Assembly (NCBI GenBank): GCA_963662945.1 | Contig: OY759974.1 | Location: 1,280,001 to 1,344,000 of the forward strand | DNA: 64,000 nt | Origin: Arcobacteraceae bacterium | GTDB lineage: Bacteria; Campylobacterota; Campylobacteria; Campylobacterales; Arcobacteraceae | Direction of reading: 5' to 3' | Shown: one piece after another, positions 15,367-41,154 of the stretch | Layout of the letters: every line of letters starts with the position of its first letter | How positions within the stretch are numbered: position 1 is the stretch's first letter | The notes under the pieces: model-generated | Databases searched by the model: none | What the model saw: only the letters and a program-made list of their open reading frames with translations | Told to the model about the DNA's origin: nothing | Made by a program: the position numbers and the translations under genes

Positions 15367-15944
15367 TGGAAAAAGAAAAAATAGTTTTAATTGGTGGTGG
15401 TGGACATTGTCACAGTGTGATTGATGTCATAGAACAAGAAAATAAATATGAAATCATAGGAGTTGTGGATAAAAAAGAATTAATTGGTACAAAAGTTTTA
15501 AATTATGACATTATAGGTTGTGATGACGATTTACCAAAGATATTTAAAATTTGTCAGAATGCTGTCATTTCAGTTGGACAAATACAATCTTCTTTAGTAA
15601 GAGAAAAACTATTTAAAGTTGCTAAGAAAATAGGTTTTTCTTTACCTATAATTATTTCTCCTCTTGCCTATGTATCTAAACATGCTAAAATAAAAGAAGG
15701 GACTGTTATAATGCATCATGTGCTAGTTAATGCAAATGCTGCCATAGGAGAAAATTGCATAATAAATACTAAAGCATTGATAGAACATGATTCAATTATT
15801 GAAGATAATTGTCATATTTCAACAGCTTCTGTTATAAATGGCGGTGTAAATGTTAAAAATGGAACTTTTTATGGAAGTAATGCTACATCAAAAGAATATA
15901 TAGAAGTTGTAGGTTTTATAAAAGCTGGGAGTCTAGTAAAGTGA
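15366..15944 (+). CDS. NeuD/PglD-family sugar acetyltransferase
   Basis: IGGGGH, hexapeptide repeats, EHD. Confidence 0.87.
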   Translation: MEKEKIVLIGGGGHCHSVIDVIEQENKYEIIGVVDKKELIGTKVLNYDIIGCDDDLPKIFKICQNAVISVGQIQSSLVREKLFKVAKKIGFSLPIIISPLAYVSKHAKIKEGTVIMHHVLVNANAAIGENCIINTKALIEHDSIIEDNCHISTASVINGGVNVKNGTFYGSNATSKEYIEVVGFIKAGSLVK

Positions 15945-16936
15945 GTGTATTTATAATTGCAGAAGCAGGAGTTAATCATAACGGTTCAATAAAATTGGCA
16001 AAACAATTAATTGATGTTGCAGTTAATAGTGGAGCTGATGCTGTAAAATTTCAAACATTTAAAACAGAAAATTTGGTCTCAAAAAATGCACAAAAGGCAG
16101 ATTATCAAAAAGAGACTACTAATGCAAATGAAACACAGTTTAATATGATTAAAAAGCTTGAACTTGATGTAGAAACACATAAAGCATTAATAACTTATTG
16201 CAATGAAAAAAATATTATGTTCCTTTCAACACCTTTTGATAATGACAGTATTGAGTTACTTAATGTTCTAGGTCTAGAAATTTTTAAAATACCTAGTGGT
16301 GAGATTACAAATTTACCATATTTAAGAAAAATTGGACAATTAAAGAAAAGAGTTATTTTATCAACAGGTATGGCTGATATTGGGGAAATAGAAGATGCAT
16401 TGGATATACTGATTCAATCAGGTGCAAAAAAAGAAGATATTATCATACTTCATGCCAACACAATGTACCCGACACCTTATGAAGATGTCAATTTAAAAGC
16501 AATGGTTACAATAGGAAAAACTTTTGATATCAAATATGGTTATAGTGACCATACACTGGGTATAGAAGTGGATGTCGCAGCTGTAGCACTTGGAGCTTGC
16601 TGTATTGAAAAACATTTTACATTAGATAAAAATATGGAAGGACCAGACCATAAAGCGAGTTTAGAACCAGATGAATTGAAATATATGGTTCAAACCATTA
16701 GAAATGTAGAATTAGCATTGGGTAGTGGCATAAAAAAACCTAGTCCAAGTGAACAACCAAATATTCAAATAGCACGAAAATCTATTGTTGCAAATTGTGA
16801 TATAGAAATAGGAGATATTTTTACAGAAAATAATATCACCATTAAAAGACCAGGTAATGGAATCAATCCTATGAGATGGGATGAAATTCTTGGTACGTAT
16901 GCAACTAAAAATTATAAAGCAGATGAATTAATATGA
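15941..16936 (+). CDS. neuB: Nonulosonate (legionaminate-type) synthase, LegI/NeuB
   Basis: IAEAGVNHNG, KFQTF, GYSDHT, EKHFTLD, C-terminal SAF domain. Confidence 0.92.
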   Translation: MSVFIIAEAGVNHNGSIKLAKQLIDVAVNSGADAVKFQTFKTENLVSKNAQKADYQKETTNANETQFNMIKKLELDVETHKALITYCNEKNIMFLSTPFDNDSIELLNVLGLEIFKIPSGEITNLPYLRKIGQLKKRVILSTGMADIGEIEDALDILIQSGAKKEDIIILHANTMYPTPYEDVNLKAMVTIGKTFDIKYGYSDHTLGIEVDVAAVALGACCIEKHFTLDKNMEGPDHKASLEPDELKYMVQTIRNVELALGSGIKKPSPSEQPNIQIARKSIVANCDIEIGDIFTENNITIKRPGNGINPMRWDEILGTYATKNYKADELI

Positions 16937-18084
16937 AAAAAGTTTGTGTAATTACAGGAACTAGAGCTGAGTATGGTCTCCTTTATTGGTTAATGAAAGG
17001 TATTGAACTAGATCAAGAATTACAACTTCAATTAATCGTTACGGGAATGCATTTAAGTCCTGAATTTGGTCTCACTTATAAAGAAATAGAAAAAGAGTTT
17101 ACAATAAATAAAAAAATTGAAATGTTATTATCTTCAGATACTGCTGTAGGAATTTCAAAATCTATGGGATTAGCTCAAATTTCTTTTTCTGAAGCATATG
17201 AAGAATTAAAACCAGATATGATAGTAGTTTTAGGAGATAGATATGAAATTTTTTCTGCTGTAAGTGCTGCTATGATAGCTTGTATTCCAATAGCACATCT
17301 TCATGGTGGAGAAAGAACAGAAGGTGCATTTGATGAAACAATAAGACATTGTATCACTAAAATGAGTTATCTTCATTTTACTTCTACAGAAGAATATAGA
17401 ACTAGAGTCATTCAATTAGGAGAAAATCCTAACCGTGTTTTTAATGTTGGTGGACTGGGTATTGAAAATATTAAACGTTTAGCTCTTTTCTCTAAAACCG
17501 AATTTGAAAAATCAATCAATTTTAAATTAAATAAAAAAAATATTCTTGTTACTTTTCATCCTGTAACTCTCGAAAATTCTACATCACAAGAACAATTTCA
17601 AGAATTACTAAATGCAATAGATGAACTACAAGATACAAATATAATTTTTACAAAAGCAAATAGTGATACTAATGGTAGGATTATTAATAAAATGATTGAA
17701 GAATATGTTTCAACTAATAGACATAAATCTATAGAATTTACATCACTTGGTCAATTACGATATTTGAGTGCTTTACAATATGTTGATGCAGTTGTAGGAA
17801 ATAGCTCAAGCGGTATCTTAGAAGCACCATCTTTTAAACTTGGTACAATCAATATTGGGGATAGACAAAAAGGCAGACTACAAACAAATAGCATCATTAA
17901 CTGTAATCCCATCAAAAATGATATTATTAGTGCATTTAAGACATTATACTCGTCAGAATTCCAAACTGAATTAAAAACTGTAAAAAATATTTACGGGGAG
18001 GGTGATACAAGCACTAAGATCATTACTATTTTACACCAATTTAAATGGAATAAATCTTTGAAAAAATCTTTTTTTGATATATAA
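16933..18084 (+). CDS. neuC: Hydrolysing NDP-sugar 2-epimerase, LegG/NeuC
   Basis: TGTRAEYG, GDRYE, HLHGGE, GNSSSG. Confidence 0.92.
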   Translation: MKKVCVITGTRAEYGLLYWLMKGIELDQELQLQLIVTGMHLSPEFGLTYKEIEKEFTINKKIEMLLSSDTAVGISKSMGLAQISFSEAYEELKPDMIVVLGDRYEIFSAVSAAMIACIPIAHLHGGERTEGAFDETIRHCITKMSYLHFTSTEEYRTRVIQLGENPNRVFNVGGLGIENIKRLALFSKTEFEKSINFKLNKKNILVTFHPVTLENSTSQEQFQELLNAIDELQDTNIIFTKANSDTNGRIINKMIEEYVSTNRHKSIEFTSLGQLRYLSALQYVDAVVGNSSSGILEAPSFKLGTINIGDRQKGRLQTNSIINCNPIKNDIISAFKTLYSSEFQTELKTVKNIYGEGDTSTKIITILHQFKWNKSLKKSFFDI

Positions 18085-18099
18085 TATCAAAATGTAAAT

Positions 18100-18672
18100 T
18101 TATTGTTTATCCTCAGTATAAATGTAATAAGAATAAATAATATGATCAAAAATCATATGTAAATCTTCAACTAACCCATATTCATTCTTTGCTGTCTGTA
18201 TATGATACACGATATCTGACATATCTTTTAATTCTCCACCATCAAAACCAGTAAGTCCTATTACTGTAGTTCCTACGCTTTTTGCATATTTTACAGCATT
18301 TACTATATTTGGAGAATTTCCACTACATGAGATAGCTATTAAAACATCATTCTTGAAAATTCTATCTTTAATTTGTTCATAAAAAATATTCTCATATCCA
18401 ATATCATTTGCTAGTGCTGTTACTACAGACATATTATCAGATAAACTTTCTATATTAAAGTTTTTAATATTCCTTCTTTTAAGTCCGACCCCTAAATCAT
18501 TTACAATATGAGATGCCGTTGCGGCACTTCCACCATTACCAATTACATATATCTTATCCTGTTTACAATCTAAACTATCTAGTTTTTTAAGAATAGTCTC
18601 TAAAACATCTCTGTCAATGTTTTCCAATAAATATGTCAATTTTTTTATGTAACCATCAATAAAAGTTTTTAT
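18100..18672 (-). CDS. SIS-domain phosphosugar isomerase (GmhA-like); start TTG 18639 or ATA 18672
   Basis: GNGGSAATASH, TALANDIGY, ISCSGNSPN, LTGFDGG, EDLH. Confidence 0.85.
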   Translation of the reverse strand: MKTFIDGYIKKLTYLLENIDRDVLETILKKLDSLDCKQDKIYVIGNGGSAATASHIVNDLGVGLKRRNIKNFNIESLSDNMSVVTALANDIGYENIFYEQIKDRIFKNDVLIAISCSGNSPNIVNAVKYAKSVGTTVIGLTGFDGGELKDMSDIVYHIQTAKNEYGLVEDLHMIFDHIIYSYYIYTEDKQ

Positions 18673-18747
18673 GGTACTGTCCTTTTATAAAAATATTTGT
18701 TATACTTCGATATTATATCATAATAAAATCTAATAAAAAGGTTAAAG

Positions 18748-20163
18748 ATGAATATAGAAGATACATACTATCTAAATTATGATGAAGCATTAAAAATAGC
18801 AAAACAAAATAATAAAATAAATAATAATAAATATATTCATCAAATTTGTTATTTTAATGGAACTCAAGATATTGATAACCTTCCTAATCTAAAACCTTTG
18901 CCTATAGATAATATTGTTGATACTTTGGCAGTTTCAATACTAAGAATACCATCAAAAATCAACTTTAATGGTATAGATATATCAGAAGATATACAAAATG
19001 AAATCAAACATAATTTTTATCTAGCCACAGAAAAAGCAGAAATCTTAAAAAAAGAAGTTGCAAAATACTATAGAGAAACCTATTTACAAAGTAAATTAGA
19101 TTTTAATGAAAAAACACGTTTTTTTTTAATGGGAAATTCCAATACGGAAGTTATGCAATATGTTTCAAAAAATATTGTTACAGCATTACAAGAATTAAAT
19201 TATGAAGTTTACTATCAAGAAATAACAGGGATAGAAGATAATATATCAATATTAAATGAATTTTATCAATTTAATCCACATGTTACTATCAACATCAATC
19301 ATCTCAGTAATGAATTTTTAAATGACGATGTTTTTAACTTTGTATGGTTTCAAGACCCTATGCCAATTTTATTAGATGACTCTGTAGTAAGATTAAGAAA
19401 AAGAGACTATCTTTACTCCTTAGTTAATGTATTAGATTCATTTTTAAATAGAAAACATCTTCCATTTAAACGACAAAGTTTTTGTGTGAATAAAAATATC
19501 TTTTATAACAATGCGGATATTCAAAGAGATAAAAAAATTATTTTCATAGGAAGTTCATATTTAAGTATGATTCCTTCAGATAATAATACAAAACTATTAG
19601 TTGATGATATCGTAGAGATTTTTAATCAGGGAGAATCTTTTTCTCCAGAAGTAATAAACAAATTATCTCAAAAATTTAATATAGATAAAGATTTAATTAC
19701 AACGAGAATTATACCTTATGTTATTAGAGATTTTAGTGTTTTAAATTTATGTGAACTCAAAACCCCTTATACAGTTGAAATTTATGGGAATGGATGGGAA
19801 AGCTATCCAAAAATCAAATCCTTTTATCATGGAGTTTTAGACTATGGGAAAAAACTTTCAGATGTATATAATACAGCTACTTTTGTTTTTGCTCCACATC
19901 AAAATTATATATTACAACAAAGAACCCTAGAAGGTGCTGCTTGTGGAGCAATACCAATTCTATATGACTGTAGAGAAATTAGTGACGAAAAAACATATGA
20001 AGAAGCAATATGTTATTTCAAAACAAAAGCAGAGTTAGAACATATACTAAATAATGAAAAGTCCTTAAAAAAAGACTTGTCCAATTTAGTAAATGATAAT
20101 ACCTATCATTCATTTGTCAATAAAATACTTGAAGTTATTAAGGAACAAGAAAATGTCAGATAA
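18748..20163 (+). CDS. Putative glycosyltransferase (CgeB-like C-terminal domain)
   Basis: WFQDP, IIFIGS, IYGNGW, QRTLEGAACGA. Confidence 0.65.
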   Translation: MNIEDTYYLNYDEALKIAKQNNKINNNKYIHQICYFNGTQDIDNLPNLKPLPIDNIVDTLAVSILRIPSKINFNGIDISEDIQNEIKHNFYLATEKAEILKKEVAKYYRETYLQSKLDFNEKTRFFLMGNSNTEVMQYVSKNIVTALQELNYEVYYQEITGIEDNISILNEFYQFNPHVTININHLSNEFLNDDVFNFVWFQDPMPILLDDSVVRLRKRDYLYSLVNVLDSFLNRKHLPFKRQSFCVNKNIFYNNADIQRDKKIIFIGSSYLSMIPSDNNTKLLVDDIVEIFNQGESFSPEVINKLSQKFNIDKDLITTRIIPYVIRDFSVLNLCELKTPYTVEIYGNGWESYPKIKSFYHGVLDYGKKLSDVYNTATFVFAPHQNYILQQRTLEGAACGAIPILYDCREISDEKTYEEAICYFKTKAELEHILNNEKSLKKDLSNLVNDNTYHSFVNKILEVIKEQENVR

Positions 20164-21247
20164 ATACAATATAGATAGTCATAAGCTTATATATCATCCA
20201 AATAGGGTTTCTCAATGGCTAGAGTCTGACAGTAATTGGAACAAACAAAAAAATATTTACCCTATATATGTTGAAATCACACCTATTGGTTCTTGTAATC
20301 ATAGATGTACTTTTTGCTCGGTTGATTATATAGGATATAAAAGTATTAAGCAAGATGAAAAAATTCTTGAAACACGTATTCGAGAGATGGGAAGACTTGG
20401 TGTAAAAAGTATAATGTTTGCAGGAGAAGGGGAACCTACTTTATATAAGCCTTTAACTCATATTTTAGACGTGTGTAGTGAATCAGGAATTGATACATCT
20501 CTTACTACAAATGCTCTCGCTATGAACACAAAGAGCATGCATAATTATATGAAAAATTGCAAATGGATAAAAGTAAGTATCAATGCAGGAGATAAAGAAA
20601 CTTATGCAAAAGTACATCAAACGAAAGAAGATGATTTTGATAAAGTTGTTCACAATCTAACGTATATGTCTAAAATTAAAAAAGAAAATGGTTACAAATG
20701 TACGGTTGGCTCTCAAATGCTTTTGCTTCCAGAAAATAAAGACAGTACACTATCCCTTGCTAGAAAAATGAAAGATGCAGGAGTTGATTATCTCGTGATA
20801 AAACCTTACACTCAAAGTTTATATGGAACATCAAGAGTTTATGAAGGTTTAACGTATGAGAATATGATGTATCTCGAAACTGAACTAAAAAAAATAGAAA
20901 CAGAAAATTTCAAAATTATTTTTAGAGCCAATACTATGAAAAAACTCGAAGAAGAATCTCAACCATATAAAAAATGTTATTCGACACCTTATTTTTGGTC
21001 ATATATTATGGCAGATGGTTCAGTGTATGGTTGTAGTGCTTATCTACAAAATGATAAATTTAATTATGGCAATATTAATAATCAGACTTTTCAAGAGATA
21101 TGGGAAGGTAATAAGCGTAAACAAGGTATCACTTTTATAGAAAATAATCTTGATATTTCAATGTGTCGAAAAAATTGTCGTATGGATGAAGTAAATAGAT
21201 ATTTATGGAATTTAAAAAACCCAACATCACATGTAAATTTTATATAG
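20153..21247 (+). CDS. Radical SAM protein with SPASM/Twitch-like domain (RS1)
   Basis: CNHRCTFC, GEGEP, C-terminal Cys..GSVYGC..GNI..CRKNC; RBS favours ATG 20153. Confidence 0.9.
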   Translation: MSDKYNIDSHKLIYHPNRVSQWLESDSNWNKQKNIYPIYVEITPIGSCNHRCTFCSVDYIGYKSIKQDEKILETRIREMGRLGVKSIMFAGEGEPTLYKPLTHILDVCSESGIDTSLTTNALAMNTKSMHNYMKNCKWIKVSINAGDKETYAKVHQTKEDDFDKVVHNLTYMSKIKKENGYKCTVGSQMLLLPENKDSTLSLARKMKDAGVDYLVIKPYTQSLYGTSRVYEGLTYENMMYLETELKKIETENFKIIFRANTMKKLEEESQPYKKCYSTPYFWSYIMADGSVYGCSAYLQNDKFNYGNINNQTFQEIWEGNKRKQGITFIENNLDISMCRKNCRMDEVNRYLWNLKNPTSHVNFI

Positions 21248-21259
21248 GAATCAATTAAA

Positions 21260-22057
21260 ATGTTAATAGCAAAAGATATTCGAAAAAAAACAATTAAATT
21301 ATCTTGTGATACGGGTGCCGGTCATTTGGCACCAGCGTTATCTACTATTGAAATTTTAACTGTCATGTTTAATAAATATTTGCGATATAATAAAAATAAT
21401 CCTAAAGATGAAAGCCGCGATAGGTTTATAATGAGTAAGGGACATGGTGCTTATGCATATTATATTATATTAAATGAATTGGGATTTTTACCAGATATTG
21501 AACTTCAAAATTTCAATACAGAAAAGGCCTCCATTAAAGGTTGTTTAGTTGAGAATAAAGAATATATGATAGAAGCTTCCACTGGCTCGTTAGGTCATGG
21601 TTTACCCATTGCTGTAGGGATGGCACAATCCTTTAAAATACAAAACAAACCCAATAAGGTCATTTGTATGATAGGAGATGGGGAGATGCAGGAGGGCAGT
21701 AATTTTGAAGCGCTTATGTTAGCCCATAGATTTAAACTCGATAATTTATTTGTTATAATTGATGCAAATGATTTACAGGCTATGGGAAGAGTTGAGGATA
21801 TTGCATTATCTAATGATAGGTTATCAAAAGTTTTAAGTAGTTTTATTGATACAAATTATTTTGATATAGATGGACATAATGAAGAGGATATAGATAGATG
21901 TTTCAATCAATTTTATAAAGGTGTTAGTGACAACTTTTCAATATTATTTGCTCGAACTATTAAAGGGAAAGGGATAGATATTTTAGAGCATTCTGAACAA
22001 CATCATTTTCGATGTCCAACTTTGGATGGATATACTTTGGAGTTAGACAATGAATAA
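21260..22057 (+). CDS. Transketolase-like protein, N-terminal TPP-binding subunit
   Basis: GHLAPALS, RDRFIMSKGH, STGSLGHG, GDGEMQEGSN. Confidence 0.9.
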   Translation: MLIAKDIRKKTIKLSCDTGAGHLAPALSTIEILTVMFNKYLRYNKNNPKDESRDRFIMSKGHGAYAYYIILNELGFLPDIELQNFNTEKASIKGCLVENKEYMIEASTGSLGHGLPIAVGMAQSFKIQNKPNKVICMIGDGEMQEGSNFEALMLAHRFKLDNLFVIIDANDLQAMGRVEDIALSNDRLSKVLSSFIDTNYFDIDGHNEEDIDRCFNQFYKGVSDNFSILFARTIKGKGIDILEHSEQHHFRCPTLDGYTLELDNE

Positions 22058-22538
22058 GTTAATTTCAAAGCAAGACGTAATGAAAGAATTTTATAATTAC
22101 TTTAAAACAGATGATAACATGGTTCTTTTAGCAGGAGACATGGGCTTTGCTGTACTTGATTCATATTTTAATAATCATGAAAATAGAGCTTTTAATTCAG
22201 GAATCAACGAACAAGCAACTGTAAGTATGGCTGCTGGAATGGCAATGACAGGACTTACTCCTATTATCTATTCTCAAATACCTTTTATCACAATGAGAGC
22301 ATTTGAACAACTAAGATATGATATAAATGAACACAAATTGAATATTAAAATTATTGGTGTTGGTGCAGATAATTATTTTAGTGCACTAGGAAGAAGTCAT
22401 TGTATGGATGATGATGATATAAAACTTATTTCTATTCTTAAAAATATTTTAATAATATCACCAACAAAAGCTACTATAAAAAATGATATAAAACGTATGT
22501 TAGAATATAATGGTCCTGTTTATATGAGGTCCTTGTAG
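22050..22538 (+). CDS. Transketolase-like pyrimidine-binding subunit without C-terminal domain
   Basis: GINEQ..VSMAAGMA, RAFEQLR, G.SH, ends GPVYMR. Confidence 0.85.
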   Translation: MNKLISKQDVMKEFYNYFKTDDNMVLLAGDMGFAVLDSYFNNHENRAFNSGINEQATVSMAAGMAMTGLTPIIYSQIPFITMRAFEQLRYDINEHKLNIKIIGVGADNYFSALGRSHCMDDDDIKLISILKNILIISPTKATIKNDIKRMLEYNGPVYMRSL

Positions 22539-23527
22539 TGAAATATTTGATATTAGGTAGTAACTCCTTTTCAGCAAGCTCTTTTATAAATTATATACTT
22601 AATCATGAATTAAATTGTAAAATCTTTGCTATTAGTCGTTCAAAAGAATATGACGCCTGTCAATTACCATATAAAAATAATACTAAGTTAAATAATGTTC
22701 ATTTTTTTCAATATAATATAAATACTGAAACAGACAAGATTGTACAACTTATCGCTGATGAAAAAATTGAATATATTTTAAACTTTGCTGCACAAGGAAT
22801 GGTTGCTCAAAGTTGGGATAATCCAGAGCAATGGTTTCAAACAAATAGTTTAAGTTTGGTGAAACTAGTTGATAAGATTTATAATTTCCCGTTTATAAAA
22901 AAATTTATACAAGTTTCAACCCCAGAAGTTTACGGCTCTTGCAATAATATCAAAGAATCTATGTGTTTTTATCCATCTTCACCATATGCAGCTTCAAAAG
23001 CTAGTGCAGATCTTATTCTTTATACTTATTTTTCTACACATAATTTTCCTATCAATTATACAAGAGCTTCAAATGTTTATGGTCCCTATCAGCAGTTGTA
23101 TCGAATAATACCAAAAACTATTCTTATGATTAAAAAAGGTGAAAAACTTCAATTACATGGTGGAGGAAAAGCTATAAGAAGTTTTATTCATATTAAAGAT
23201 GTTGCAGCAGCTACACTAAAAATAATACATGAAGCAAAAGCTGGGGAAATATATCACTTAAGCGATTCTAAAACTATACCTATTTATAATTTAGTGCAAT
23301 TGATTTGTGAATTAATGGGAAAAAATATTCATGATTGTATTGATATTGTAGAAGATAGAATAGGTCAAGATTCTTTATATTTAATGAATAATCAAAAAAT
23401 GATTGATGATTTTAATATGCAACCAAACGTATCTTTAAAAGAGGGAATCAAAGAAGTTATAAATTGGATTGAGTTAAACTATGAAGAATTACAGAAAAAA
23501 CCAGATTATTATAAACATAAAAGATAA
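22538..23527 (+). CDS. NAD-dependent NDP-sugar dehydratase/epimerase (RmlB/Gmd-like)
   Basis: GSNSFSA, STPEVYG, PSSPYAASK, NVYGP. Confidence 0.88.
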   Translation: MKYLILGSNSFSASSFINYILNHELNCKIFAISRSKEYDACQLPYKNNTKLNNVHFFQYNINTETDKIVQLIADEKIEYILNFAAQGMVAQSWDNPEQWFQTNSLSLVKLVDKIYNFPFIKKFIQVSTPEVYGSCNNIKESMCFYPSSPYAASKASADLILYTYFSTHNFPINYTRASNVYGPYQQLYRIIPKTILMIKKGEKLQLHGGGKAIRSFIHIKDVAAATLKIIHEAKAGEIYHLSDSKTIPIYNLVQLICELMGKNIHDCIDIVEDRIGQDSLYLMNNQKMIDDFNMQPNVSLKEGIKEVINWIELNYEELQKKPDYYKHKR

Positions 23528-23538
23528 AAGGAAGTGAA

Positions 23539-23832
23539 ATGAAGGATACAATACAATATACAAGATATGAATCTCCAGAGTTACAAAAGTGGAAACAATT
23601 ACCACAACTAACGCAGTTAGAAAAAATAGAAAGTTTAAGTCAAGATTTTAGAAATGAACTTAAAGTAATAAATGTAAAAGATCAAATGATTGAAGTAAAT
23701 GTTTATGTTCCAAAAGAACAAGTTTATCAGTTATTAGTAAATTATGAAAAATATTTAAGAGAGAAATTAGATAATATGCCTATTATTGTATTATTAAAGG
23801 AACGACTAGATGAAAACAAAAAAAGAAAATAA
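23539..23832 (+). CDS. Small hypothetical protein
   Basis: 97 aa, AAGGAAG RBS, overlaps start of RS2. Confidence 0.6.
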   Translation: MKDTIQYTRYESPELQKWKQLPQLTQLEKIESLSQDFRNELKVINVKDQMIEVNVYVPKEQVYQLLVNYEKYLREKLDNMPIIVLLKERLDENKKRK

Positions 23833-24928
23833 ATATATTTTAGATGCAACAAAAGTATATTGGCATCAAGAAAGAATAAAACAATGGGAAAAGGGAGAAA
23901 AAATTGCTCCTATTACCATTGATATGGCTCTTACAAGAGCATGTAATTATGGATGCCACTTCTGCTATGCTAGATTACAAGAAAATGATAGATTTGATAT
24001 AACAAAAGAGCATATTGATAACTTTTTAGAAGATTGTGCTGAAATGGGTGTTAAAGCTATATCTTTAGTAAGTGATGGTGAAAGTTCTTTATCCCCAATT
24101 TATGAGCATACCATTATAAGAGGTTCTGAACTAGGTATATCAATGGCTGCTGCAACACATGGATACAACACTAGATATGAAGCTTTAGAAAGAATTCTTC
24201 CTCATCTTACTTATCTAAGAGTCAATATATCTGCTGGTGAACCAAAAAGATATGCACAGATTATGGGTGTAAAAGAGGAAGCATTTTATCAAGTTATTCA
24301 GAATATCAAAGATATGGTTGAGATAAAGAAAAGAGATGATCTTGATGTAACAATTGGTATGCAAATGGTACTTATGCCTGAAGATGCTGATCAAGTAATT
24401 CCTTTGGCGAAACTAGGGAAAGAGATTCGTCCAGATTACTTAGTAGTAAAACACACAAGTGATAGTGAAGATGGGAAACTAGGTGTTGATTATTCTAAAT
24501 ATGCCGAATTAACGCATATTTTAGAAGAAGCCGAATCTTATAGCGATGAAAATTATCAAGTTTCTGTAAAATGGTCAAAAATTAATGCTGAAGGAAAACG
24601 AAGCTACCAAAGATGTTATGGACCACCATTTCAAATACAGATTTCAGGTTCAGGACTAGTGGCACCTTGTGGAATGTTTTTTAATGAACGATATAGCCGA
24701 TTCCATATTGGAAATATCACTCAACAAAGATTTAAGGATATAGTGCAAAGTGATCGATATTGGGAAATTATGAATCATATTGCTTCTCCAAATTTTGATG
24801 CACAAACTATGTGTGGTTCATTGTGCTTACAACACAAAGTTAATGAGTTTTTAGATAATTACAAAAAAGGTAATGTACAACTTAAGAAACCAAGTGGTAC
24901 ACCACCGAATCATATAAATTTTATATAA
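23810..24928 (+). CDS. Radical SAM protein with SPASM/Twitch-like domain (RS2)
   Basis: CNYGCHFC; C..GLVAPC..GNI..CGSLC; ends HINFI like RS1 (HVNFI). Confidence 0.9.
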   Translation: MKTKKENKYILDATKVYWHQERIKQWEKGEKIAPITIDMALTRACNYGCHFCYARLQENDRFDITKEHIDNFLEDCAEMGVKAISLVSDGESSLSPIYEHTIIRGSELGISMAAATHGYNTRYEALERILPHLTYLRVNISAGEPKRYAQIMGVKEEAFYQVIQNIKDMVEIKKRDDLDVTIGMQMVLMPEDADQVIPLAKLGKEIRPDYLVVKHTSDSEDGKLGVDYSKYAELTHILEEAESYSDENYQVSVKWSKINAEGKRSYQRCYGPPFQIQISGSGLVAPCGMFFNERYSRFHIGNITQQRFKDIVQSDRYWEIMNHIASPNFDAQTMCGSLCLQHKVNEFLDNYKKGNVQLKKPSGTPPNHINFI

Positions 24929-24937
24929 AGTATTTTA

Positions 24938-26350
24938 ATGAAAAAAGTATTTGTAAGTGGTGATTTTAATATATTACATCCTGGTCACTTAAGATTATTA
25001 AAATTTGCAAAAGAAAGTGGTGATTATTTAATAGTAGGAGTAAATAGTGATGCCATCAGTTATAAAGGCATTAACGAAGATATTAGATTAGAATCAATCA
25101 AAGCTACTAGTTATGTAGATGAAGCTTTTATACTTAATATCTCTCCACTAAAATATATAGAACAACATAAACCTCATATTGTGGTAAAAGGGAAAGAACA
25201 TGAAAATAGAGAAAATCCAGAATTAGAAGTTATTAACAGCTATGGGGGAAAACTACTATTTAGTTCTGGAGAAATTGGATTTTCCTCTATAGACCTTTTA
25301 AAACAAGAATTTTTACATACTAACTATAAAGTAGAGCATCATACAAAATATCTTAAAAGACATAATTTTAATTTTTCTGACTTAAACACTATAATCGATA
25401 AATTTAGCAACTTAAATATTCTTGTCATAGGAGATACAATTGTTGATGAGTATATTACTTGTGAACCTTTAGGTATGAGTCAAGAAGATCCAACTATTGT
25501 TGTGAGTCCCTTATTAAATGATAAATTTATAGGCGGTGCTGCTATTGTAGCTAGTCACGCTAAAACATTAGGTGCACATGTAAAATTTATCTCAGTGGTT
25601 GGAGATGATGAAAATCATTATTTTGTAAAAGAAGGATTAGAAAAACTAGATATAGATGTTTCACTGTATGTAGATAGTACTCGACCAACTACTTTAAAAC
25701 AGCGATTTAGAGCAAAAGACAAAACCCTCCTAAGGGTAAATCACCTTAAACATCATGGTATTAGTAAAGATATACAAAATGATATAATAAAAAACATTGA
25801 AAAAAATATTCAAGACATAGATTTAATTATATTTTCTGATTTTAGTTATGGTGTTTTAACAAATACCCTAATAAATAACATCTCAAATCTAGGTTTACAT
25901 CATAATATACTTATGTCTGCAGATTCCCAAAGTTCATCTCAAGTAGGAGATATATCTAAATTTAAAAATATGACCCTTGTAACACCAACAGAAAGAGAAA
26001 TTCGATTATCACTAAATGATTTTGAATCAGGGCTAGTTGTTTTATCCGAGAAGCTTGTAGAAAAAACTCATACAAAATTTATCTTTACTACACTTGGAAG
26101 TGAAGGTGTTATGATATATAATGATGAGAAAGAAGGGCTACTAACAGATAATATAAATGCTCTTGGAAATATTGTAAAAGATGTAAGTGGTGCTGGTGAT
26201 TCACTACTCACATGCAGTTCTATGGCATTATGTGTGGGAGCAACAATTTGGCAAAGTGCTTATTTAGGTTCATTAGCTTCAGCTATCCAAGTTAGTCGAT
26301 TAGGTAATGTTCCAATCAAAAAAGATGAACTTTTAAAAGAATTACAATAG
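24938..26350 (+). CDS. Bifunctional nucleotidyltransferase / PfkB sugar kinase (HldE-like, reversed domains)
   Basis: N-terminal GDFNILHPGH; C-terminal IGDTIVDEY, GGAA, DVSGAGD. Confidence 0.85.
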   Translation: MKKVFVSGDFNILHPGHLRLLKFAKESGDYLIVGVNSDAISYKGINEDIRLESIKATSYVDEAFILNISPLKYIEQHKPHIVVKGKEHENRENPELEVINSYGGKLLFSSGEIGFSSIDLLKQEFLHTNYKVEHHTKYLKRHNFNFSDLNTIIDKFSNLNILVIGDTIVDEYITCEPLGMSQEDPTIVVSPLLNDKFIGGAAIVASHAKTLGAHVKFISVVGDDENHYFVKEGLEKLDIDVSLYVDSTRPTTLKQRFRAKDKTLLRVNHLKHHGISKDIQNDIIKNIEKNIQDIDLIIFSDFSYGVLTNTLINNISNLGLHHNILMSADSQSSSQVGDISKFKNMTLVTPTEREIRLSLNDFESGLVVLSEKLVEKTHTKFIFTTLGSEGVMIYNDEKEGLLTDNINALGNIVKDVSGAGDSLLTCSSMALCVGATIWQSAYLGSLASAIQVSRLGNVPIKKDELLKELQ

Positions 26351-26353
26351 AAC

Positions 26354-27064
26354 ATGAAAGCATTACTTCTAAGTGCAGGTTTAGGAACAAGACTTCGACC
26401 AATCACTAATACAATTCCTAAATGTTTAGTACCTATTAATGGAAAACCTTTATTAGAGTATTGGCTGGAAAACCTTTCAAATGCTGGGATTGAAGAGTTT
26501 TTAATCAATACATCTTATTTAAGTGAACAAATTGAGGCATTTGTAAAAGATAGTCAATATCAAGAGAAAATAACTTTAGTTCATGAAAATGAATTGCTAA
26601 ATACTGGTGGAACAATAGTAAAAAATAGTAATTTTTTTGATGATAAACCTTTTATGTTAATTCATGCAGACAATCTCTCTTTTTGTGACTTTAAATCTTT
26701 TATAAATTCTCATAACGATAGACCAAAAAATTGTGAATTAACCATGATGTTATTTCATACAGATAATCCAAGTAGTTGTGGTATTGTCGAACTAGATTCA
26801 TCTAATAGAGTAATCAAATTTCATGAAAAAGTGAAAAATCCACCATCAAATATAGCAAATGGTGCCGTATACATTTGTGAACCTTCAATTATTGAGTTTT
26901 GTATCAATTTAGATAAAAAAAATATAGATTTTTCAAATGAAGTTTTGCCAAAATACATGGGAAAGATAAATACTTTTTTAAACGATATTTATCATAGAGA
27001 TATAGGAAATATAGAAAGTTATGCTTTGGCACAGATTGAAATACGAGAAATCAATTTTAATTAG
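26354..27064 (+). CDS. Sugar-1-phosphate nucleotidyltransferase (HddC-like)
   Basis: LSAGLGTRLRPIT..PK, TGG, FHEK, DIG. Confidence 0.85.
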   Translation: MKALLLSAGLGTRLRPITNTIPKCLVPINGKPLLEYWLENLSNAGIEEFLINTSYLSEQIEAFVKDSQYQEKITLVHENELLNTGGTIVKNSNFFDDKPFMLIHADNLSFCDFKSFINSHNDRPKNCELTMMLFHTDNPSSCGIVELDSSNRVIKFHEKVKNPPSNIANGAVYICEPSIIEFCINLDKKNIDFSNEVLPKYMGKINTFLNDIYHRDIGNIESYALAQIEIREINFN

Positions 27065-27122
27065 CATTTCTTAATATTAGTTTAATAAATATTTTGTTAC
27101 AGTAGCCATAAAGGATTTGATT

Positions 27123-28166
27123 ATGAATGTTAGAGAATTACTACTCACTGAAGATACTCCAATTATACAAGCCTTAGATATTATTGCAAAAGGTGCTAAA
27201 AGTATTGCCTTAATAGTTGATACAAATAATAAATTATTGGGAACTTTAAATGATGGAGATATTAGAAGAGCCCTTTTAAATAGTTATGATTTACAACAGC
27301 CGATTAAAGATATTTATCAACAAAATCCTTGTGTTTGTACTATAAATGACACAAAAGAATTTATTATACAAAAAGCAATCAAAAATAAAGTATATCAAAT
27401 TCCAATAGTAGATAATAACTACAAATTAGTAGATCTTGAAGATTTAGCCACTCTACTCACAAATGTTAAAAGGAAGAATAGAGTTTTTTTAATGGCAGGA
27501 GGATTAGGAACTAGACTACGACCTTTAACTACAAATACACCTAAACCCCTTCTTGAAGTGGGGAATAAGCCTATTTTAGAAACGATAATTGAAAATTTTG
27601 CAAAATATGGATTTGTAAATATAACTATAAGTGTAAATTATAAAGCAAATATGATAAAGGATTATTTTGGTGATGGTAGTCGTTTTGGAGTTAGTATTGA
27701 CTATATAGAAGAAACAAAAAGATTAGGCACAGCAGGTGCACTTGGACTTATTGACAATAAACCTACAGAACCATTTTTTGTCATGAATGCAGATTTATTA
27801 ACAAATATTAATTTTACCCATTTACTAGATTTTCACTCTTTTGAAAATTCAATTGCTACAATGTGTGTTCGAGAATATGATTTTCAAGTACCTTTTGGAG
27901 TAGTTGAAACTGAAGATGGAAATATTGTATCAATTAAAGAAAAACCTGTACATAAATTTTTTGTCAATGCGGGTATTTATACTTTATCACCTCAAGTATT
28001 TCAATATATTCCAATTAACACATTTTATGATATGCCAACATTATTTGAAGATTTGATACAAAATCAACATAAAACAATTTCATTTCCTATTCATGAATAT
28101 TGGCTTGATATTGGGAGAATTGAAGAGTTTGAGAAAGCTAATAATGAATATGACGAGGTATTTTAA
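27123..28166 (+). CDS. ptmE: CBS-domain nucleotidyltransferase (PtmE/LgaF-type)
   Basis: DGDIRR CBS pair, MAGGLGTRLRPLT..PKP, WLDIG. Confidence 0.85.
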   Translation: MNVRELLLTEDTPIIQALDIIAKGAKSIALIVDTNNKLLGTLNDGDIRRALLNSYDLQQPIKDIYQQNPCVCTINDTKEFIIQKAIKNKVYQIPIVDNNYKLVDLEDLATLLTNVKRKNRVFLMAGGLGTRLRPLTTNTPKPLLEVGNKPILETIIENFAKYGFVNITISVNYKANMIKDYFGDGSRFGVSIDYIEETKRLGTAGALGLIDNKPTEPFFVMNADLLTNINFTHLLDFHSFENSIATMCVREYDFQVPFGVVETEDGNIVSIKEKPVHKFFVNAGIYTLSPQVFQYIPINTFYDMPTLFEDLIQNQHKTISFPIHEYWLDIGRIEEFEKANNEYDEVF

Positions 28167-29027
28167 TTGAATATCTTAATTATTGGGTATGGTTCAATTG
28201 GAAAACGTCATGAACGTATATTGTCAACAATGCAAGATAGTACTTATAGCATAGATATTGTTACCAAGCAAAATATTGAACAAAAAAATACCTTTACAAG
28301 CATATCACAAATAAAAAATTTAAATAGATATGATTATTTTATAATAGCAAATGAAACTTACAAACATTCTCTTACACTAAAAACTATCGATAAACTTGTC
28401 AATCACAAAATAATTTTAGTTGAAAAACCATTATTTAAAGATTATGAAAAATTTCAGCCAAAAAATAAAGTTTTGGTTGCCTACAACTTACGATTTCATC
28501 CTATAATAGAGTTCTTAAAACCATATAAATTTATCTTTTTCAATGCTATTGTAGGACAAGATTTAAAACAATGGAGAGATAGAAATTATATTAAAAACTA
28601 CAGTGCAAAAAAACAATACGGAGGTGGTGTACTCCGTGATTTAAGTCATGAAATTGATTATATCCAATATCTAAATGGTAAAATTAAGGATATTCACTCT
28701 ACCATTGATAAAAAAAGTAACTTAAACATAGATGTAGAAGACATTGTTATAGGTAATGGAAAAACAAGAAATGCTATTATAGGATTTTCTATGGATTATA
28801 TAAGTAAAATACCATTTAGACAAATTATAGCCCATACAAAAAATGAAACTTTTATTTGTGATTTTATTTCAAATTCAATTAATAATAAAAAATTAAAAGA
28901 TATAGATAGGGACTATACCTATAGAGAAATGCATAAAGCAATTTTAAACAATAACTTTGATAAAGTTTGTACTTATAAAGAAGGTTTAAAAACTATGAAA
29001 GTAATACAAGAAATAGAAAATGAGTAA
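28167..29027 (+). CDS. Gfo/Idh/MocA oxidoreductase (PtmF/ElaA-like)
   Basis: IGYGSIGKRH, VEKP, YNLRFHP, GGGVLRDLSHEID. Confidence 0.82.
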   Translation: MNILIIGYGSIGKRHERILSTMQDSTYSIDIVTKQNIEQKNTFTSISQIKNLNRYDYFIIANETYKHSLTLKTIDKLVNHKIILVEKPLFKDYEKFQPKNKVLVAYNLRFHPIIEFLKPYKFIFFNAIVGQDLKQWRDRNYIKNYSAKKQYGGGVLRDLSHEIDYIQYLNGKIKDIHSTIDKKSNLNIDVEDIVIGNGKTRNAIIGFSMDYISKIPFRQIIAHTKNETFICDFISNSINNKKLKDIDRDYTYREMHKAILNNNFDKVCTYKEGLKTMKVIQEIENE

Positions 29028-29721
29028 TATCTTATGTACAATATGTGCCAGAGGTGGTTCTAAAGGTGTTAAAAATAAAAACATTAAATTACTTAATGGA
29101 AAACCTCTTATTGCATATACAATAGAACAAGCTAGAACAACAAATCTTTTTGATCATATAGTTGTTAGTACAGATTCTGATAAAATTGCTAATATTGCAA
29201 GAGAATATGGAGCAGAAATATTTTTTCAAAGAGATGCGGAAATGGCAAGTGATACAGCAGGAAAGTTAGATGTAATTAAAGATGCTTTTATAAAAAGTGA
29301 GCAATACTATAAAAAACAATTTGAGTATCTTATAGATTTGGATGTAACATCACCATTAAGAGATGCATCAGACATTACTAATTCATTTCAACAATTTTTA
29401 GAAAATAAAAATGATAATCTTATAACTGCAATGCCTAGTAGAAGAAGTCCTTATTTTAATTTAGTAGAATTACATAATGGAAAGGTTGTTTTATCAAAGA
29501 ATTTAGACTGTAAAGTAGTACGTAGGCAAGATGCCCCAAAAAGTTACGATATGAATGCTTCTATATATATTTGGAAAAGGGATGTTATTTTAAATGAGAA
29601 TAAACTTTTTCTTGAGAATACTGGCTTATACGTAATGCCTGAAGAGCGATCTATTGATATAGATACTGAATTAGATTATAAATTTGTAGAGTTTTTAATG
29701 AGGGAAAAAAACAATGATTAA
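29020..29721 (+). CDS. neuA: CMP-nonulosonate synthetase (LegF/PtmB/NeuA)
   Basis: ARGGSKGVKNKN, TSPLR, RRQD, SIDID. Confidence 0.9.
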   Translation: MSNILCTICARGGSKGVKNKNIKLLNGKPLIAYTIEQARTTNLFDHIVVSTDSDKIANIAREYGAEIFFQRDAEMASDTAGKLDVIKDAFIKSEQYYKKQFEYLIDLDVTSPLRDASDITNSFQQFLENKNDNLITAMPSRRSPYFNLVELHNGKVVLSKNLDCKVVRRQDAPKSYDMNASIYIWKRDVILNENKLFLENTGLYVMPEERSIDIDTELDYKFVEFLMREKNND

Positions 29722-30484
29722 AGGACAAGTTGTCGTAATAACTGGCGGTGCTGGACTTATAGGAAAAGAATTTGTAAAGGCTGTAGTTCAAAATAATGGT
29801 ATAGCAATTATAGCAGATATAAATGAGCAAGTTGGAATAAAAACAAAAGATGATTTATCAAAAGAACTTCGCACTACACAAATTGACTTTGTACAATTAA
29901 ATATTACATCAAAACATTCTATAAATGAAGCTATACATATTATTTCTTCTAAATATACAAAAATTGATGCCCTAGTTAATAATGCTTATCCTAGAAATCA
30001 AAACTATGGTAACCATTTTTTTGATGTTGAATATGAAGATTTTATTGAAAACCTAGGTCTTAATTTAGGTGGCTATTTTACTTCCTCTCAACAGTTTGCC
30101 AAGTATTTTCAATTGCAAGGATATGGAAATATTATTAATATATCTTCAATTTATGGAGTAGTTGCTCCAAAGTTTGAAATATATAATCATACGCCGATGA
30201 CTATGCCTGTAGAATACGCAGCTATAAAGTCTGGACTTATTCACCTTACAAAATATATGGCAAAATATTTTAAAGGAATGAATATAAGAGTGAATGCACT
30301 AAGTCCTGGTGGAATTTTTGATAATCAACCTAAGCTTTTTTTAGAACAATATAAAAACAATTGTTTGACTAAAGGGATGCTTAATGCAAGTGACTTAAAA
30401 GGTACTTTAATCTATTTGCTAAGTGATATGAGTCAATATGTTAATGGACAAAATATTATTGTCGATGATGGTTTTAGTTTATAA
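29714..30484 (+). CDS. ptmA: SDR oxidoreductase (PtmA/ElaC-like)
   Basis: TGGAGLIG, NNAYPRN, SSIYG, YAAIK. Confidence 0.8.
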   Translation: MIKGQVVVITGGAGLIGKEFVKAVVQNNGIAIIADINEQVGIKTKDDLSKELRTTQIDFVQLNITSKHSINEAIHIISSKYTKIDALVNNAYPRNQNYGNHFFDVEYEDFIENLGLNLGGYFTSSQQFAKYFQLQGYGNIINISSIYGVVAPKFEIYNHTPMTMPVEYAAIKSGLIHLTKYMAKYFKGMNIRVNALSPGGIFDNQPKLFLEQYKNNCLTKGMLNASDLKGTLIYLLSDMSQYVNGQNIIVDDGFSL

Positions 30485-30493
30485 AGGAAAAAA

Positions 30494-31639: not shown

Positions 31640-32247
31640 AACTTGTAATTATTGATTATGGTATGGGAAATATAAAATCACTTATTAGTGCTTATAACTA
31701 TATCGGTGTTCACAATATCATTCTTTCAAATAATTATCAAGAAATTAAATCTGCAGATAAAATATTACTTCCTGGTGTTGGCTCTTTTTTTCAAGCAATG
31801 CAAAATATCAAGAATTTAGAACTTGACAAATATCTCGAAGAAATTGTACTTTCTGATAAAAAACCAATTTTAGGAATTTGTCTGGGGATGCAACTTTTAG
31901 GTTCAAGCAGTGAAGAAGATGGTTTTACAGAAGGATTAAATTTTATCGAAGCAAGCTGTAAAAAATTCAAACAAGCTAATTTAAAAGTACCGCATGTTGG
32001 TTTTAATCAAGTAAATATAAATAAAAACTCTAAATTGTTTTTAGAACTAGAAGACAAAAGTGATTTTTATTTTACCCATAGTTATAAAATGTCTACAAAA
32101 AAAGATATTAATGAATCAACTTGTGTATATGGAGATAATTTTGTTGCAGCCTTTGAATATGGTAATATTTTAGGTACACAATTTCATCCGGAGCTGAGTC
32201 AAACTAATGGCTTACAAATATTAAAAAACTTTATTGAGAAATTTTAA
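31636..32247 (+). CDS. HisH-like glutaminase (WbuY-like)
   Basis: DYGMGN, LPGVG, GICLGMQ, QFHPE. Confidence 0.88.
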   Translation: MKLVIIDYGMGNIKSLISAYNYIGVHNIILSNNYQEIKSADKILLPGVGSFFQAMQNIKNLELDKYLEEIVLSDKKPILGICLGMQLLGSSSEEDGFTEGLNFIEASCKKFKQANLKVPHVGFNQVNINKNSKLFLELEDKSDFYFTHSYKMSTKKDINESTCVYGDNFVAAFEYGNILGTQFHPELSQTNGLQILKNFIEKF

Positions 32248-33989: not shown

Positions 33990-33997
33990 GAAACTAG

Positions 33998-35205: not shown

Positions 35206-35211
35206 AATAGT

Positions 35212-36279: not shown

Positions 36280-36292
36280 TAAGAGGTAAAAA

Positions 36293-39973: not shown

Positions 39974-40002
39974 AATATACTATCCTTTTCTAATATTCTA
40001 GC

Positions 40003-40037
40003 AAAAAAAAACCCAAGTTAAAGTTAACTTGGGTTTT
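40003..40037 (-). terminator. Intrinsic terminator after flagellin 1
   Basis: aaaacccaagttaa-ag-ttaacttgggtttt with T-run on the minus strand. Confidence 0.8.
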
Positions 40038-40063
40038 CCATAATTTAATTATCTTAAAGAAAA

Positions 40064-41065: not shown

Positions 41066-41117
41066 AAATTAAATCTCAAAAATAAAATCAATAACCTCAT
41101 TTTTAAAATCTAATCAT

Positions 41118-41143: not shown

Positions 41144-41154
41144 ACTTTAGAAAA

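Follow-up and report, generated by a model that had tools for sequence, protein, structure and literature searches.

A radical SAM and thiamine enzyme cassette in a flagellin glycosylation island as one copy of a candidate sugar-tailoring module

What kind of sugar is encoded by a compact group of genes lodged among the flagellin glycosylation genes of an Arcobacteraceae bacterium, and to which acceptor would it be attached? The genes occupy positions 18100-27064 of a 64,000-nucleotide stretch of contig OY759974.1 (assembly GCA_963662945.1, positions 1,280,001 to 1,344,000, forward strand), hereafter the window, and comprise ten open reading frames (ORFs), all present and intact, with a significant Pfam or NCBIfam family match for each enzyme. 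With a probability of about 0.5, we read this cassette as one copy of a widespread, uncharacterised sugar-tailoring module that would make a nucleotide-diphosphate (NDP)-heptose-derived sugar, branched or extended by two carbons, for flagellin. The invariant core of that module, as far as gene linkage can tell, is a DesII-like radical S-adenosylmethionine (SAM) enzyme, RS1, together with a two-subunit thiamine-diphosphate (ThDP) enzyme. A preliminary description of the locus had counted nine genes, taking a transketolase in two halves as one, and all of these are real and supported by Pfam or NCBIfam. The members of the cassette are as follows, those from 22538 onwards including an extended short-chain dehydrogenase/reductase (SDR), a small protein (s97) and a second radical SAM enzyme (RS2):

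18100-18639, minus strand: SIS-domain sugar-phosphate isomerase, GmhA-like (PF13580, TIGR00441)
18748-20163, plus strand: putative glycosyltransferase of 471 aa with a GT-B-like C-terminal half (PF13524)
20153-21247, plus strand: RS1, radical SAM enzyme with one Twitch-type auxiliary cluster (ORF as listed, 20093-21247)
21260-22057, plus strand: thiamine-diphosphate enzyme, transketolase-type N-terminal (PP) subunit (PF00456)
22050-22538, plus strand: thiamine enzyme, Pyr-domain subunit, short form (PF02779)
22538-23527, plus strand: extended SDR, dTDP-glucose-4,6-dehydratase-like, type A (TIGR01181)
23539-23832, plus strand: s97, Cys-free alpha/beta protein of 97 aa, without a family match
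23810-24928, plus strand: RS2, second radical SAM enzyme (PF04055, PF13186)
24938-26350, plus strand: fusion of an HldC-like nucleotidyltransferase (N-terminal) and an HldA-like PfkB kinase (C-terminal) (TIGR02199, TIGR02198)
26354-27064, plus strand: RmlA/ManC/HddC-like sugar-1-phosphate nucleotidyltransferase (PF00483)

None of the cassette enzymes reaches the curated NCBIfam cut-off of its nearest named family, and it is the company that these genes keep elsewhere that carries most of the argument. Among 401 genomes of the same order, this one included, RS1 matches at E 1e-60 or better occur in 20, fourteen at 55-100% identity and six at 38-40%, spread over six families; such a patchy distribution is typical of variable glycan islands. 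Flanking DNA was taken from the same-order genomes, from eight GTDB contigs and from 80 metagenome contigs (GC 0.22-0.68), and the window's proteins were mapped onto it by tblastn, yielding 109 loci with an RS1-family gene of at least 200 bits. Eight short pieces, several of them duplicates (L001-L008), and one weak partial match (L019) were left out before counting, the window itself was not counted, and the figures below refer to the 53 loci with at least 3 kb upstream and at least 5 kb downstream of RS1. A two-subunit thiamine enzyme lies within 6 kb of RS1 in 52 of these, 38 being of the transketolase type and 15 pairs of pyruvate dehydrogenase E1 (PDH-E1) alpha and beta subunits, with both types at one locus and neither at L038; in 41/53 the first thiamine subunit is found within 1.3 kb of RS1 on the same strand. 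Near RS1 there is a second radical SAM gene in 42/53 loci, an HldE-like gene in 40, an SDR gene in 37 and an RmlA-like transferase in 23, with a SIS gene within 6 kb in 35, and nonulosonate genes within 12 kb in 29. Because this order of genes turns up again in further genomes of the Campylobacterales and in metagenomes, the arrangement is, on this comparative footing, not a matter of chance. The neighbourhood search proposed at the outset has thus placed the cassette, which is not peculiar to this genome, within a very large family spanning many phyla.

The thiamine enzyme repays closer inspection. Its N-terminal piece, rightly recognised before as part of a transketolase, matches PF00456 at 104 bits and NF004559 at 195.3 bits (cut-off 488), with the split transketolase 6yak as its best Protein Data Bank (PDB) match. 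The supposed second half is a Pyr domain only, 162 aa long and lacking Transketolase_C, which matches PF02779 alone (48.8 bits; NF004559, 50.2 vs 488), such that the three-domain architecture and cut-off score of a transketolase (NF004559 or TIGR00232) are both wanting. The ThDP motif is present in the N-terminal piece, as GDGEMQEG...DAND, and the cofactor-activating Glu in the Pyr piece, within GINEQ; both align with the housekeeping transketolase. Since the Pyr piece measures 161-171 aa at most close-clade loci (about 290-307 aa in a distant clade), the short form is a conserved one and not the result of damage. Three donor-type His residues align with the housekeeping transketolase (we assume here the donor-binding His numbering of E. 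coli TktA); the GHP-motif His position holds Cys95, which is invariant in the close clade (window and 18 loci), and eight distant-clade loci keep His. Residues at what we take to be the phosphate-binding positions of transketolase also differ in the window enzyme, which is thus a derived member of its type.

The window enzyme is thus of the transketolase type and is not an E1-type sugar-branching pair like AviB1/AviB2, and yet in 15/53 related loci it is exactly such an E1 alpha/beta pair that takes the slot of the split transketolase. The interchange is visible in gene order: a locus from the window's own genus (L009) runs SIS, RS1, GalE-like SDR, transketolase N, Pyr, a 239-aa protein with the s97 domain, RS2, fusion and nucleotidyltransferase; a metagenome contig of GC 0.56 (L054) runs SIS, RS1, GalE-like SDR, E1 alpha, E1 beta, a 112-aa protein and RS2. 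We know of no E1-type enzyme, a class that decarboxylates 2-oxo acids, that makes sedoheptulose-7-phosphate. Because such pairs fill the same slot, the thiamine enzyme is most simply read as a step of the pathway, which would transfer a ThDP-bound two-carbon unit to an intermediate, and not as a source of sedoheptulose. The presence of a thiamine enzyme beside RS1 in all but one locus, with an E1 pair in 15, likewise favours a C2-adding step, and it is on this ground that the earlier suggestion of a higher-carbon or branched sugar gains strength, the product itself being argued from these genes.

The gene for RS1 starts at 20153, given that its homologues are 364 aa long and cover 95% of the 384-aa ORF, and it then overlaps the glycosyltransferase gene by 11 nt. 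The protein has the radical SAM motif CxxxCxxC at C68/C72/C75 (384-aa ORF numbering; PF04055, 65.7 bits) and four C-terminal cysteines that are invariant in 27 sequences. Neither RS1 nor RS2 has the seven-Cys SPASM motif; the four C-terminal cysteines of each are Twitch-like, which indicates one Twitch-type auxiliary cluster and not two as in SPASM enzymes. The AlphaFold2 model of RS1 (mean pLDDT 90.3, pTM 0.89) has DesII (8hzv) as its best Foldseek match in the PDB (E 1.9e-17, TMq 0.66), ahead of SuiB (1.2e-15), SkfB (2.3e-14) and anSME (1.2e-12), and of BlsE (1.4e-11), viperin (4.3e-11) and MoaA (8.7e-10). DesII acts on a TDP-sugar, which it can deaminate or dehydrogenate at C3/C4, and BlsE and viperin take nucleoside or nucleotide substrates; the fold match therewith fits an NDP-sugar substrate, by a modest margin over the peptide maturases. 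BtrN, AprD4, HygY and NeoN are further radical SAM enzymes acting on sugars or sugar nucleotides, and BtrN has one Twitch-type auxiliary cluster, as in RS1, although BtrN is absent from the PDB sequence search with RS1 at E 0.01 or better. For all its likeness to the sugar-acting enzymes, with DesII nearest and BlsE also matched, RS1 falls far below the cut-off of the DesII family TIGR04426 (45.9 bits, and 29.6 for RS2, vs 450). Its homologues number 5270 at E 0.001 or better, and 6222 at E 1e-60 or better when the L054 protein is the query; their names are generic or mistaken only (e.g. cyclic pyranopterin phosphate synthase). A search of their source names for producers of known unusual glycans returned generic names and environmental lineages only, and in the ESM Atlas the clusters of RS1 are generically named radical SAM whilst those of s97 are unnamed.

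Genes for heptose-type activation accompany this core. The SIS protein (PF13580, 68.7 bits; GmhA TIGR00441, 108.4 vs cut-off 209.45) is 35% identical to the housekeeping gmhA product, with which its motifs GNGGS, ND.GY, S.SGNS and E/D..H....H align, including the residues that we take to be catalytic in GmhA. The supposed HldE-like protein does hold both domains, in the reverse order of HldE, with the nucleotidyltransferase N-terminal (TIGR02199, 63.8 vs cut-off 181.5, residues 3-122) and the PfkB kinase C-terminal (TIGR02198, 210 bits vs cut-off 345, residues 153-469). Both domains stay under their cut-offs, as does the whole against HldE NF008454 (163.4 vs 521), and the best PDB matches are the heptose-7-phosphate kinase HldA (4e84) and 5x9q, deposited as 'putative cytidylyltransferase', which we take to be HldC. 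The nucleotidyltransferase-then-kinase order is found in 41 of the 46 loci with a kinase-domain match, the opposite order in none and the kinase alone in five; the reversed order is a signature of the module. In the close clade the fusion gene is adjoined by that of the RmlA/ManC-like transferase (PF00483, 136 bits; NF052502, 127.6 vs 440; HddC NF049965, 96.7 vs 300). The isomerase-kinase-nucleotidyltransferase logic of NDP-heptose synthesis, put forward in the preliminary description, stands in its general form and is strengthened by the comparative data, albeit with every score below its cut-off. Housekeeping gmhA, hldE (normal domain order), tkt and dxs genes are present separately in the genome, together with a gmhB that adjoins the housekeeping gmhA; given these and the low scores, the cassette is a second, divergent pathway and not part of the heptose synthesis of the lipopolysaccharide core.

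Between activation and transfer stand the SDR, RS2 and s97. The SDR scores 222.8 bits against TIGR01181 (cut-off 365.1), with RmlB 6bi4 as best PDB match (185 bits). It has YxxxK, and in place of the Thr-Asp-Glu triad, which we take from RmlB as the reference, the motif STPEVYG, i.e. S-T-P-E with Pro replacing Asp; this motif and a degenerate N-terminal glycine-rich NAD motif are kept in the type-A orthologues. Other loci have a GalE-like SDR, type B, between RS1 and the thiamine enzyme. RS2 is a paralogue of RS1 (27% identity) with the radical SAM motif C45/C49/C52 (PF04055, 55.3 bits; PF13186 also matches), and across subclades it is better conserved than RS1, at 77-91% identity. All four of its auxiliary-cluster cysteines are lost together in 6/23 aligned homologues, those travelling with E1 pairs, which suggests that this cluster is not needed for the chemistry and would fit a redox-neutral step.

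The s97 gene overlaps that of RS2 by 23 nt, and its Cys-free product has no match in Pfam or NCBIfam. A protein with the s97 domain lies directly upstream of RS2 in 15 of the 26 loci where the RS2 homologue is at least 45% identical; four of these proteins have 92-104 aa, six 110-121 aa (one annotated longer) and five about 240 aa, the last carrying the domain at the C-terminal end. Their relationship rests on profile matches of E 1e-9 to 1e-5 (27-sequence set), with hhalign probabilities of 87%, 64% and 14% for three pairs among the kinds of s97, the s97/s112 pair being that with 14%; BLASTP of s97 against the 112-aa L054 protein gives no match, the likeness being visible to profile searches only. 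A 90-aa ORF upstream of RS2 at L023 was rejected as a relative, as it aligned poorly and had been scored by a hidden Markov model whose training set included it. The AlphaFold2 model of s97 (pLDDT 83) has no Foldseek match at E 0.001 or better, the best, CnfU/NifU-C at E 0.027, being a lead only. s97 is predicted to bind RS2, with a complex score of 0.82 (runs 0.28, 0.82 and 0.82; best of three controls 0.00), contact agreement of at least 70% between runs, partner pLDDT of at least 78 and an interface on the Twitch region of RS2, residues 265-334. The mark used is reached by 58/80 solved complexes and 2/110 mismatched pairs, a calibration that is rough only, since custom alignments were used. 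In some related loci other tailoring genes replace the s97-RS2 segment (L013:13381-17968, L014:13378-17757 and L014:19180-20691), namely methyltransferases, a 'sporadic carbohydrate cluster' 2OG-Fe(II) oxygenase, an SDR, a Zn-alcohol dehydrogenase, a B12-binding radical SAM gene and two more radical SAM genes of SPASM type; in its tailoring part the cassette is modular.

From homology and gene linkage we infer a route in which: 1) the GmhA-like isomerase, the reversed kinase/nucleotidyltransferase fusion and the RmlA-like transferase would convert sedoheptulose-7-phosphate into a nucleotide-activated heptose-type sugar; 2) RS1 and the SDR would turn a carbinol of the sugar into a keto or deoxy-keto centre; 3) that carbonyl would receive a two-carbon unit from the transketolase-type thiamine enzyme, which would leave the sugar C-branched or chain-extended (C9); 4) RS2, bound to the 97-aa protein, would carry out a second radical step, probably redox-neutral; 5) the adjacent glycosyltransferase would place the product on the flagellin glycan, which Maf would found with legionaminic acid. 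For this last step the gene at 18748-20163 is the candidate; its product matches PF13524 (Glyco_trans_1_2) at 31.5 bits against a cut-off of 25, has no NCBIfam match and only chance-level matches in a PDB sequence search, and its orthologues (32-47% identity) adjoin the cassette in 10/53 loci. A bolder version of step three, to which we give a slim chance, is that the RS1/thiamine core turns NDP-heptose into a nine-carbon sugar (heptose plus C2), a route to C9 sugars without the NeuB-type condensation, in which a radical enzyme may close a carbocycle as in caryose. Flagellin would in that event carry two different C9 sugars made by unrelated chemistry. Caryose is 4,8-cyclo-3,9-dideoxy-nonose, and a 2022 review calls its origin unknown (PMC9092360).

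The case for flagellin as the target begins with the setting of the cassette, which sits between legB/C/H/I/G and ptmE/F/B/A, with a Maf gene and three flagellin genes some 11 kb away:

13039-18084, plus strand: legionaminic-acid context genes, by Pfam a Polysacc_synt_2 dehydratase, a DegT aminotransferase, a PglD-like acetyltransferase, a NeuB-type synthase and a hydrolysing 2-epimerase
27117-33018, plus strand: ptmE/F/B/A-like genes (27117-30484, encoding a CBS-nucleotidyltransferase, a GFO oxidoreductase, a CMP-sugar synthetase and an SDR), a WbuX-type N-acetyl-sugar amidotransferase and a HisH/HisF-like pair
38018-43382, minus strand: Maf glycosyltransferase and three tandem flagellin genes
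38018-39973, minus strand: the Maf gene
40064-43382, minus strand: the three flagellin genes

The genes from 13039 to 38016 form one tightly packed plus-strand string, with the SIS gene (18100-18639) as its sole inverted member, and the AT-rich window (GC 0.25-0.34 in 2-kb steps) has no compositional break at the cassette. Maf (with its MptE-like and Maf N-terminal domains), flagellin and nonulosonate genes are clustered as in Maf-type flagellin islands, bearing out the description of the locus as a flagellin glycosylation island; Leg and Ptm genes flank the cassette on both sides. RS1 and Maf are 16.8 kb apart in the window genome, and in 10/15 other Campylobacterales genomes they share a contig within 25 kb, the remaining five having them on different contigs. 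The distances are 2.7 kb (G156, for one of its two cassette copies), 5.7 kb (G178), 6.2 kb (G395), 8.0 kb (G304), 9.4 kb (G202), 11.9 kb (G357), 12.7 kb (G260), 17.2 kb (G230), 21.5 kb (G006) and 24.2 kb (G360, by a weak 47-bit match). Because of this shared location, flagellin is most likely the acceptor in this order, whilst elsewhere the target need not be the same, given the Wzz and ManC neighbours of the module in L054. The preliminary reading, of a higher-carbon or branched sugar for the flagellin glycan, is accordingly the best available and better grounded than before, though supported in part: the proximity to Maf speaks for it, non-flagellar contexts such as L054 occur, and both product and acceptor are argued from gene content. 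A complete genome of the same family, G156, has its two copies about 85 kb apart (L021 and L022, G156:C1 about 1008500-1028499 and 1093000-1112999), one only of which is beside Maf and three flagellin genes.

Several observations weigh against the reading just given. The loci are interrelated and were all found through RS1, and counts such as 52/53 consequently express linkage, not independent trials. Within 6 kb of RS1 the SIS gene is missing in 18/53 loci and the HldE-like gene in 13/53, and a distant Campylobacterales clade is without both, although in that clade RS1, the transketolase and RS2, next to Maf and flagellin, keep company with an RmlD-like reductase and with a GT9 gene (heptosyltransferase family), the latter in favour of the heptose logic. 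A GmhB-type phosphatase is absent from the cassette, the sole strong gmhB being that beside the housekeeping gmhA, and the cassette has two nucleotidyltransferases where one NDP-sugar needs only one. Types A (dehydratase-like) and B (epimerase-like) of the SDR are not equivalent, and the subclades that carry them would therefore probably make different products. For the fold of RS1, the E-value of DesII is only about 100-fold better than those of the peptide-modifying SuiB and SkfB. Lastly, flagellin or Maf is found within 12 kb of RS1 in just 11/53 loci, and the relative in L054 adjoins Wzz and ManC.

This last point leads to the alternative that the sugar is as proposed and destined for lipooligosaccharide or capsule, for which the L054 neighbours, among them an outer-membrane efflux protein, the few flagellar loci and a glycosyltransferase without recognisable acceptor specificity would all speak. 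In the window, however, the cassette is inserted between legG and ptmE, on their strand and within one tight string of genes reaching as far as Maf and the flagellins, there is but one Maf match in the genome, and the proximity of RS1 to Maf recurs across the order; we consider a destination other than flagellin unlikely here. A different objection concerns the thiamine enzyme, which might supply only a sedoheptulose-7-phosphate or octulose-8-phosphate precursor, leaving the radical SAM enzymes to epimerise or deoxygenate a plain NDP-heptose or NDP-octose. The N subunit is indeed nearest to genuine transketolases, neighbouring genes encode a GmhA-like isomerase and a heptose-kinase-like domain, and the lincomycin octose pathway (LmbR transaldolase, LmbN isomerase, LmbP kinase, LmbK phosphatase, LmbO nucleotidyltransferase) provides a precedent, combining like the cassette a carbon-transfer enzyme with isomerase-kinase-nucleotidyltransferase logic for a higher-carbon NDP-sugar. 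That pathway differs in that its transaldolase is not a thiamine enzyme, in its dedicated phosphatase and in involving no radical SAM enzymes, and against a simple precursor supply of the lincomycin kind speaks the interchange with PDH-E1 pairs, which are not known as makers of ketose phosphates. The distant clade, moreover, keeps the thiamine enzyme next to RS1 without a SIS or HldE-like gene, the genome already has a housekeeping transketolase, and the close-clade enzyme has Cys for an active-site His and differs at the positions aligned with phosphate binding, all of which makes mere precursor supply rather unlikely.

Since the cassette is embedded in Leg/Ptm genes, and nonulosonate genes are close by in over half of the counted loci, one might also ask whether it builds no separate sugar at all and instead a substituent of legionaminic acid, of glycolyl or hydroxyacyl type and derived from the ThDP-bound C2 unit. 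Natural-product pathways do offer examples of split transketolases that hand glycolyl units to carrier proteins; by Pfam and NCBIfam, however, the cassette has no carrier protein, ligase or acyltransferase, and s97 has neither Cys nor a recognised carrier motif. The GmhA-like isomerase, the anomeric-kinase-like domain and two nucleotidyltransferases indicate a sugar nucleotide, and 24/53 loci have no nonulosonate gene nearby, such that this reading strikes us as improbable. It is scarcely credible that RS2 and s97 are a pair for maturing a ribosomally made peptide (RiPP-like), with s97 as substrate or recognition element and no relation to the sugar. The small ORF does stand immediately before RS2, and the peptide maturases SkfB and SuiB are among the SPASM/Twitch radical SAM enzymes that come closest by sequence; against this, s97 is predicted to be a folded domain and has no Cys, the same domain is fused C-terminally in proteins of about 240 aa at other loci, the predicted docking site is the Twitch region of RS2 and not its active site, and the pair always lies within strings of sugar genes.

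How, then, does the proposed heptose-derived, C2-modified sugar pathway compare with systems already described? NDP-heptose pathways (GmhA, HldE or HldA plus HldC, GmhB and HldD; HddA/HddC for the GDP route) share with the cassette the GmhA motifs of the SIS protein, a PfkB domain nearest to HldA, an HldC-like domain and an HddC/RmlA-like transferase; unlike them, the cassette has no GmhB or HldD, scores below cut-offs, reverses the order of the fusion and exists as extra copies beside housekeeping genes. The Maf islands of Campylobacter, Helicobacter and Aeromonas, with their Leg/Pse pathways, likewise unite Leg/Ptm genes, Maf and tandem flagellins, to which the window's island adds a module for sulfation from 3'-phosphoadenosine-5'-phosphosulfate (PAPS); to our knowledge no characterised Maf island has a radical SAM/thiamine/heptose cassette, and none was found in the open-access literature. 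Amongst thiamine enzymes that branch sugars, YerE and ErwE add acyl groups to CDP-4-keto-3,6-dideoxyglucose (PMC9306805), and for AviB1/AviB2 and Pau11/Pau12 the proposed reaction is the attachment at C-4 of an acetyl branch that stems from pyruvate (PMC4753412); in the parts of these papers concerned, they resemble the cassette in having the thiamine enzyme within a nucleotide-sugar operon next to an SDR (PMC9306805, PMC4753412). With AviB1/B2 the 15/53 related loci also share the E1 alpha/beta pair, whereas YerE and ErwE are of the acetolactate-synthase type and the window enzyme, a split transketolase, is truncated and has Cys in place of a His. The substrate of the known systems is a 3,6-dideoxyhexose and that of the cassette appears to be of heptose type; the thiamine enzyme of the cassette is always paired with a radical SAM enzyme, which is absent from the known systems as those passages describe them (PMC9306805, PMC4753412).

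Literature searches over the main text of open-access papers and bioRxiv preprints found no description of this gene combination and no characterised equivalent, in agreement with the earlier statement that no characterised flagellin glycan pathway of this composition was known; the combination represents a new form of nucleotide-sugar tailoring. Of thiamine enzymes that add carbon to sugar nucleotides only a few antibiotic and O-antigen pathways are known, and of radical SAM enzymes that tailor sugars a few antibiotic pathways. To judge from the counted loci, both occur here as an obligate pair, in a family with thousands of members in many phyla, none of them characterised. The window copy belongs to the complete genome of a flagellated member of the Campylobacterales, and because its likely acceptor, flagellin, is abundant, easily purified and amenable to mass spectrometry, it offers a practical experimental entry point to the product of the whole family. 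Such a product would enlarge the range of flagellar glycans, and these influence filament assembly as well as recognition by phages and by the immune system.

A number of smaller observations concern the surroundings of the cassette. The flagellins of the window have 289-293 aa only and 85-91% mutual identity, and a fourth flagellin-like gene, 41% identical, lies elsewhere in the genome. The first Leg dehydratase (13039-14226) is a 395-aa Polysacc_synt_2 protein, FnlA/PseB-like and below cut-offs, and not an SDR of the LegB type TIGR04180. At 30494-33018 the WbuX-type amidotransferase (347.6 bits, above the cut-off of 203.2) and its HisH- and HisF-like partners make up a set of the type that puts acetamidino groups on nonulosonic acids. 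The PAPS-sulfation set between the Ptm genes and Maf (33009-38016) is complete, with a sulfotransferase, a TauE-family exporter, APS kinase, ATP sulfurylase, a CysQ-like phosphatase and a 326-aa pyruvate-kinase (PK) barrel without the C-terminal domain, which suggests that the flagellin glycan is sulfated. Related genes (CysC, Sat, PK-like and, at L041 only, TauE) stand directly upstream of RS1 at the metagenome loci L041 and L043, and at L034 a sulfotransferase belongs to the same gene string as the cassette relative. L054 encodes at 15932-20698 a bifunctional aldolase/SDR, a methylthioadenosine (MTA) phosphorylase and a methylthioribose-1-phosphate isomerase, all above cut-offs, which together would appear to salvage 5'-deoxyadenosine and MTA next to radical enzymes that consume SAM; relatives occur of the aldolase/SDR and MtnA at L057 and of MtnP at L065. 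As for public sequencing runs, near-identical DNA is present in several, one of which carries the stretch 14000-33000 in two contigs with 0-1 differences, and no RNA run is listed among them. An algae-metagenome run contains a relative with a few percent divergence across the cassette, and in further runs bearing the label of the same coded organism only between a quarter and a half of the sequence words sampled are present.

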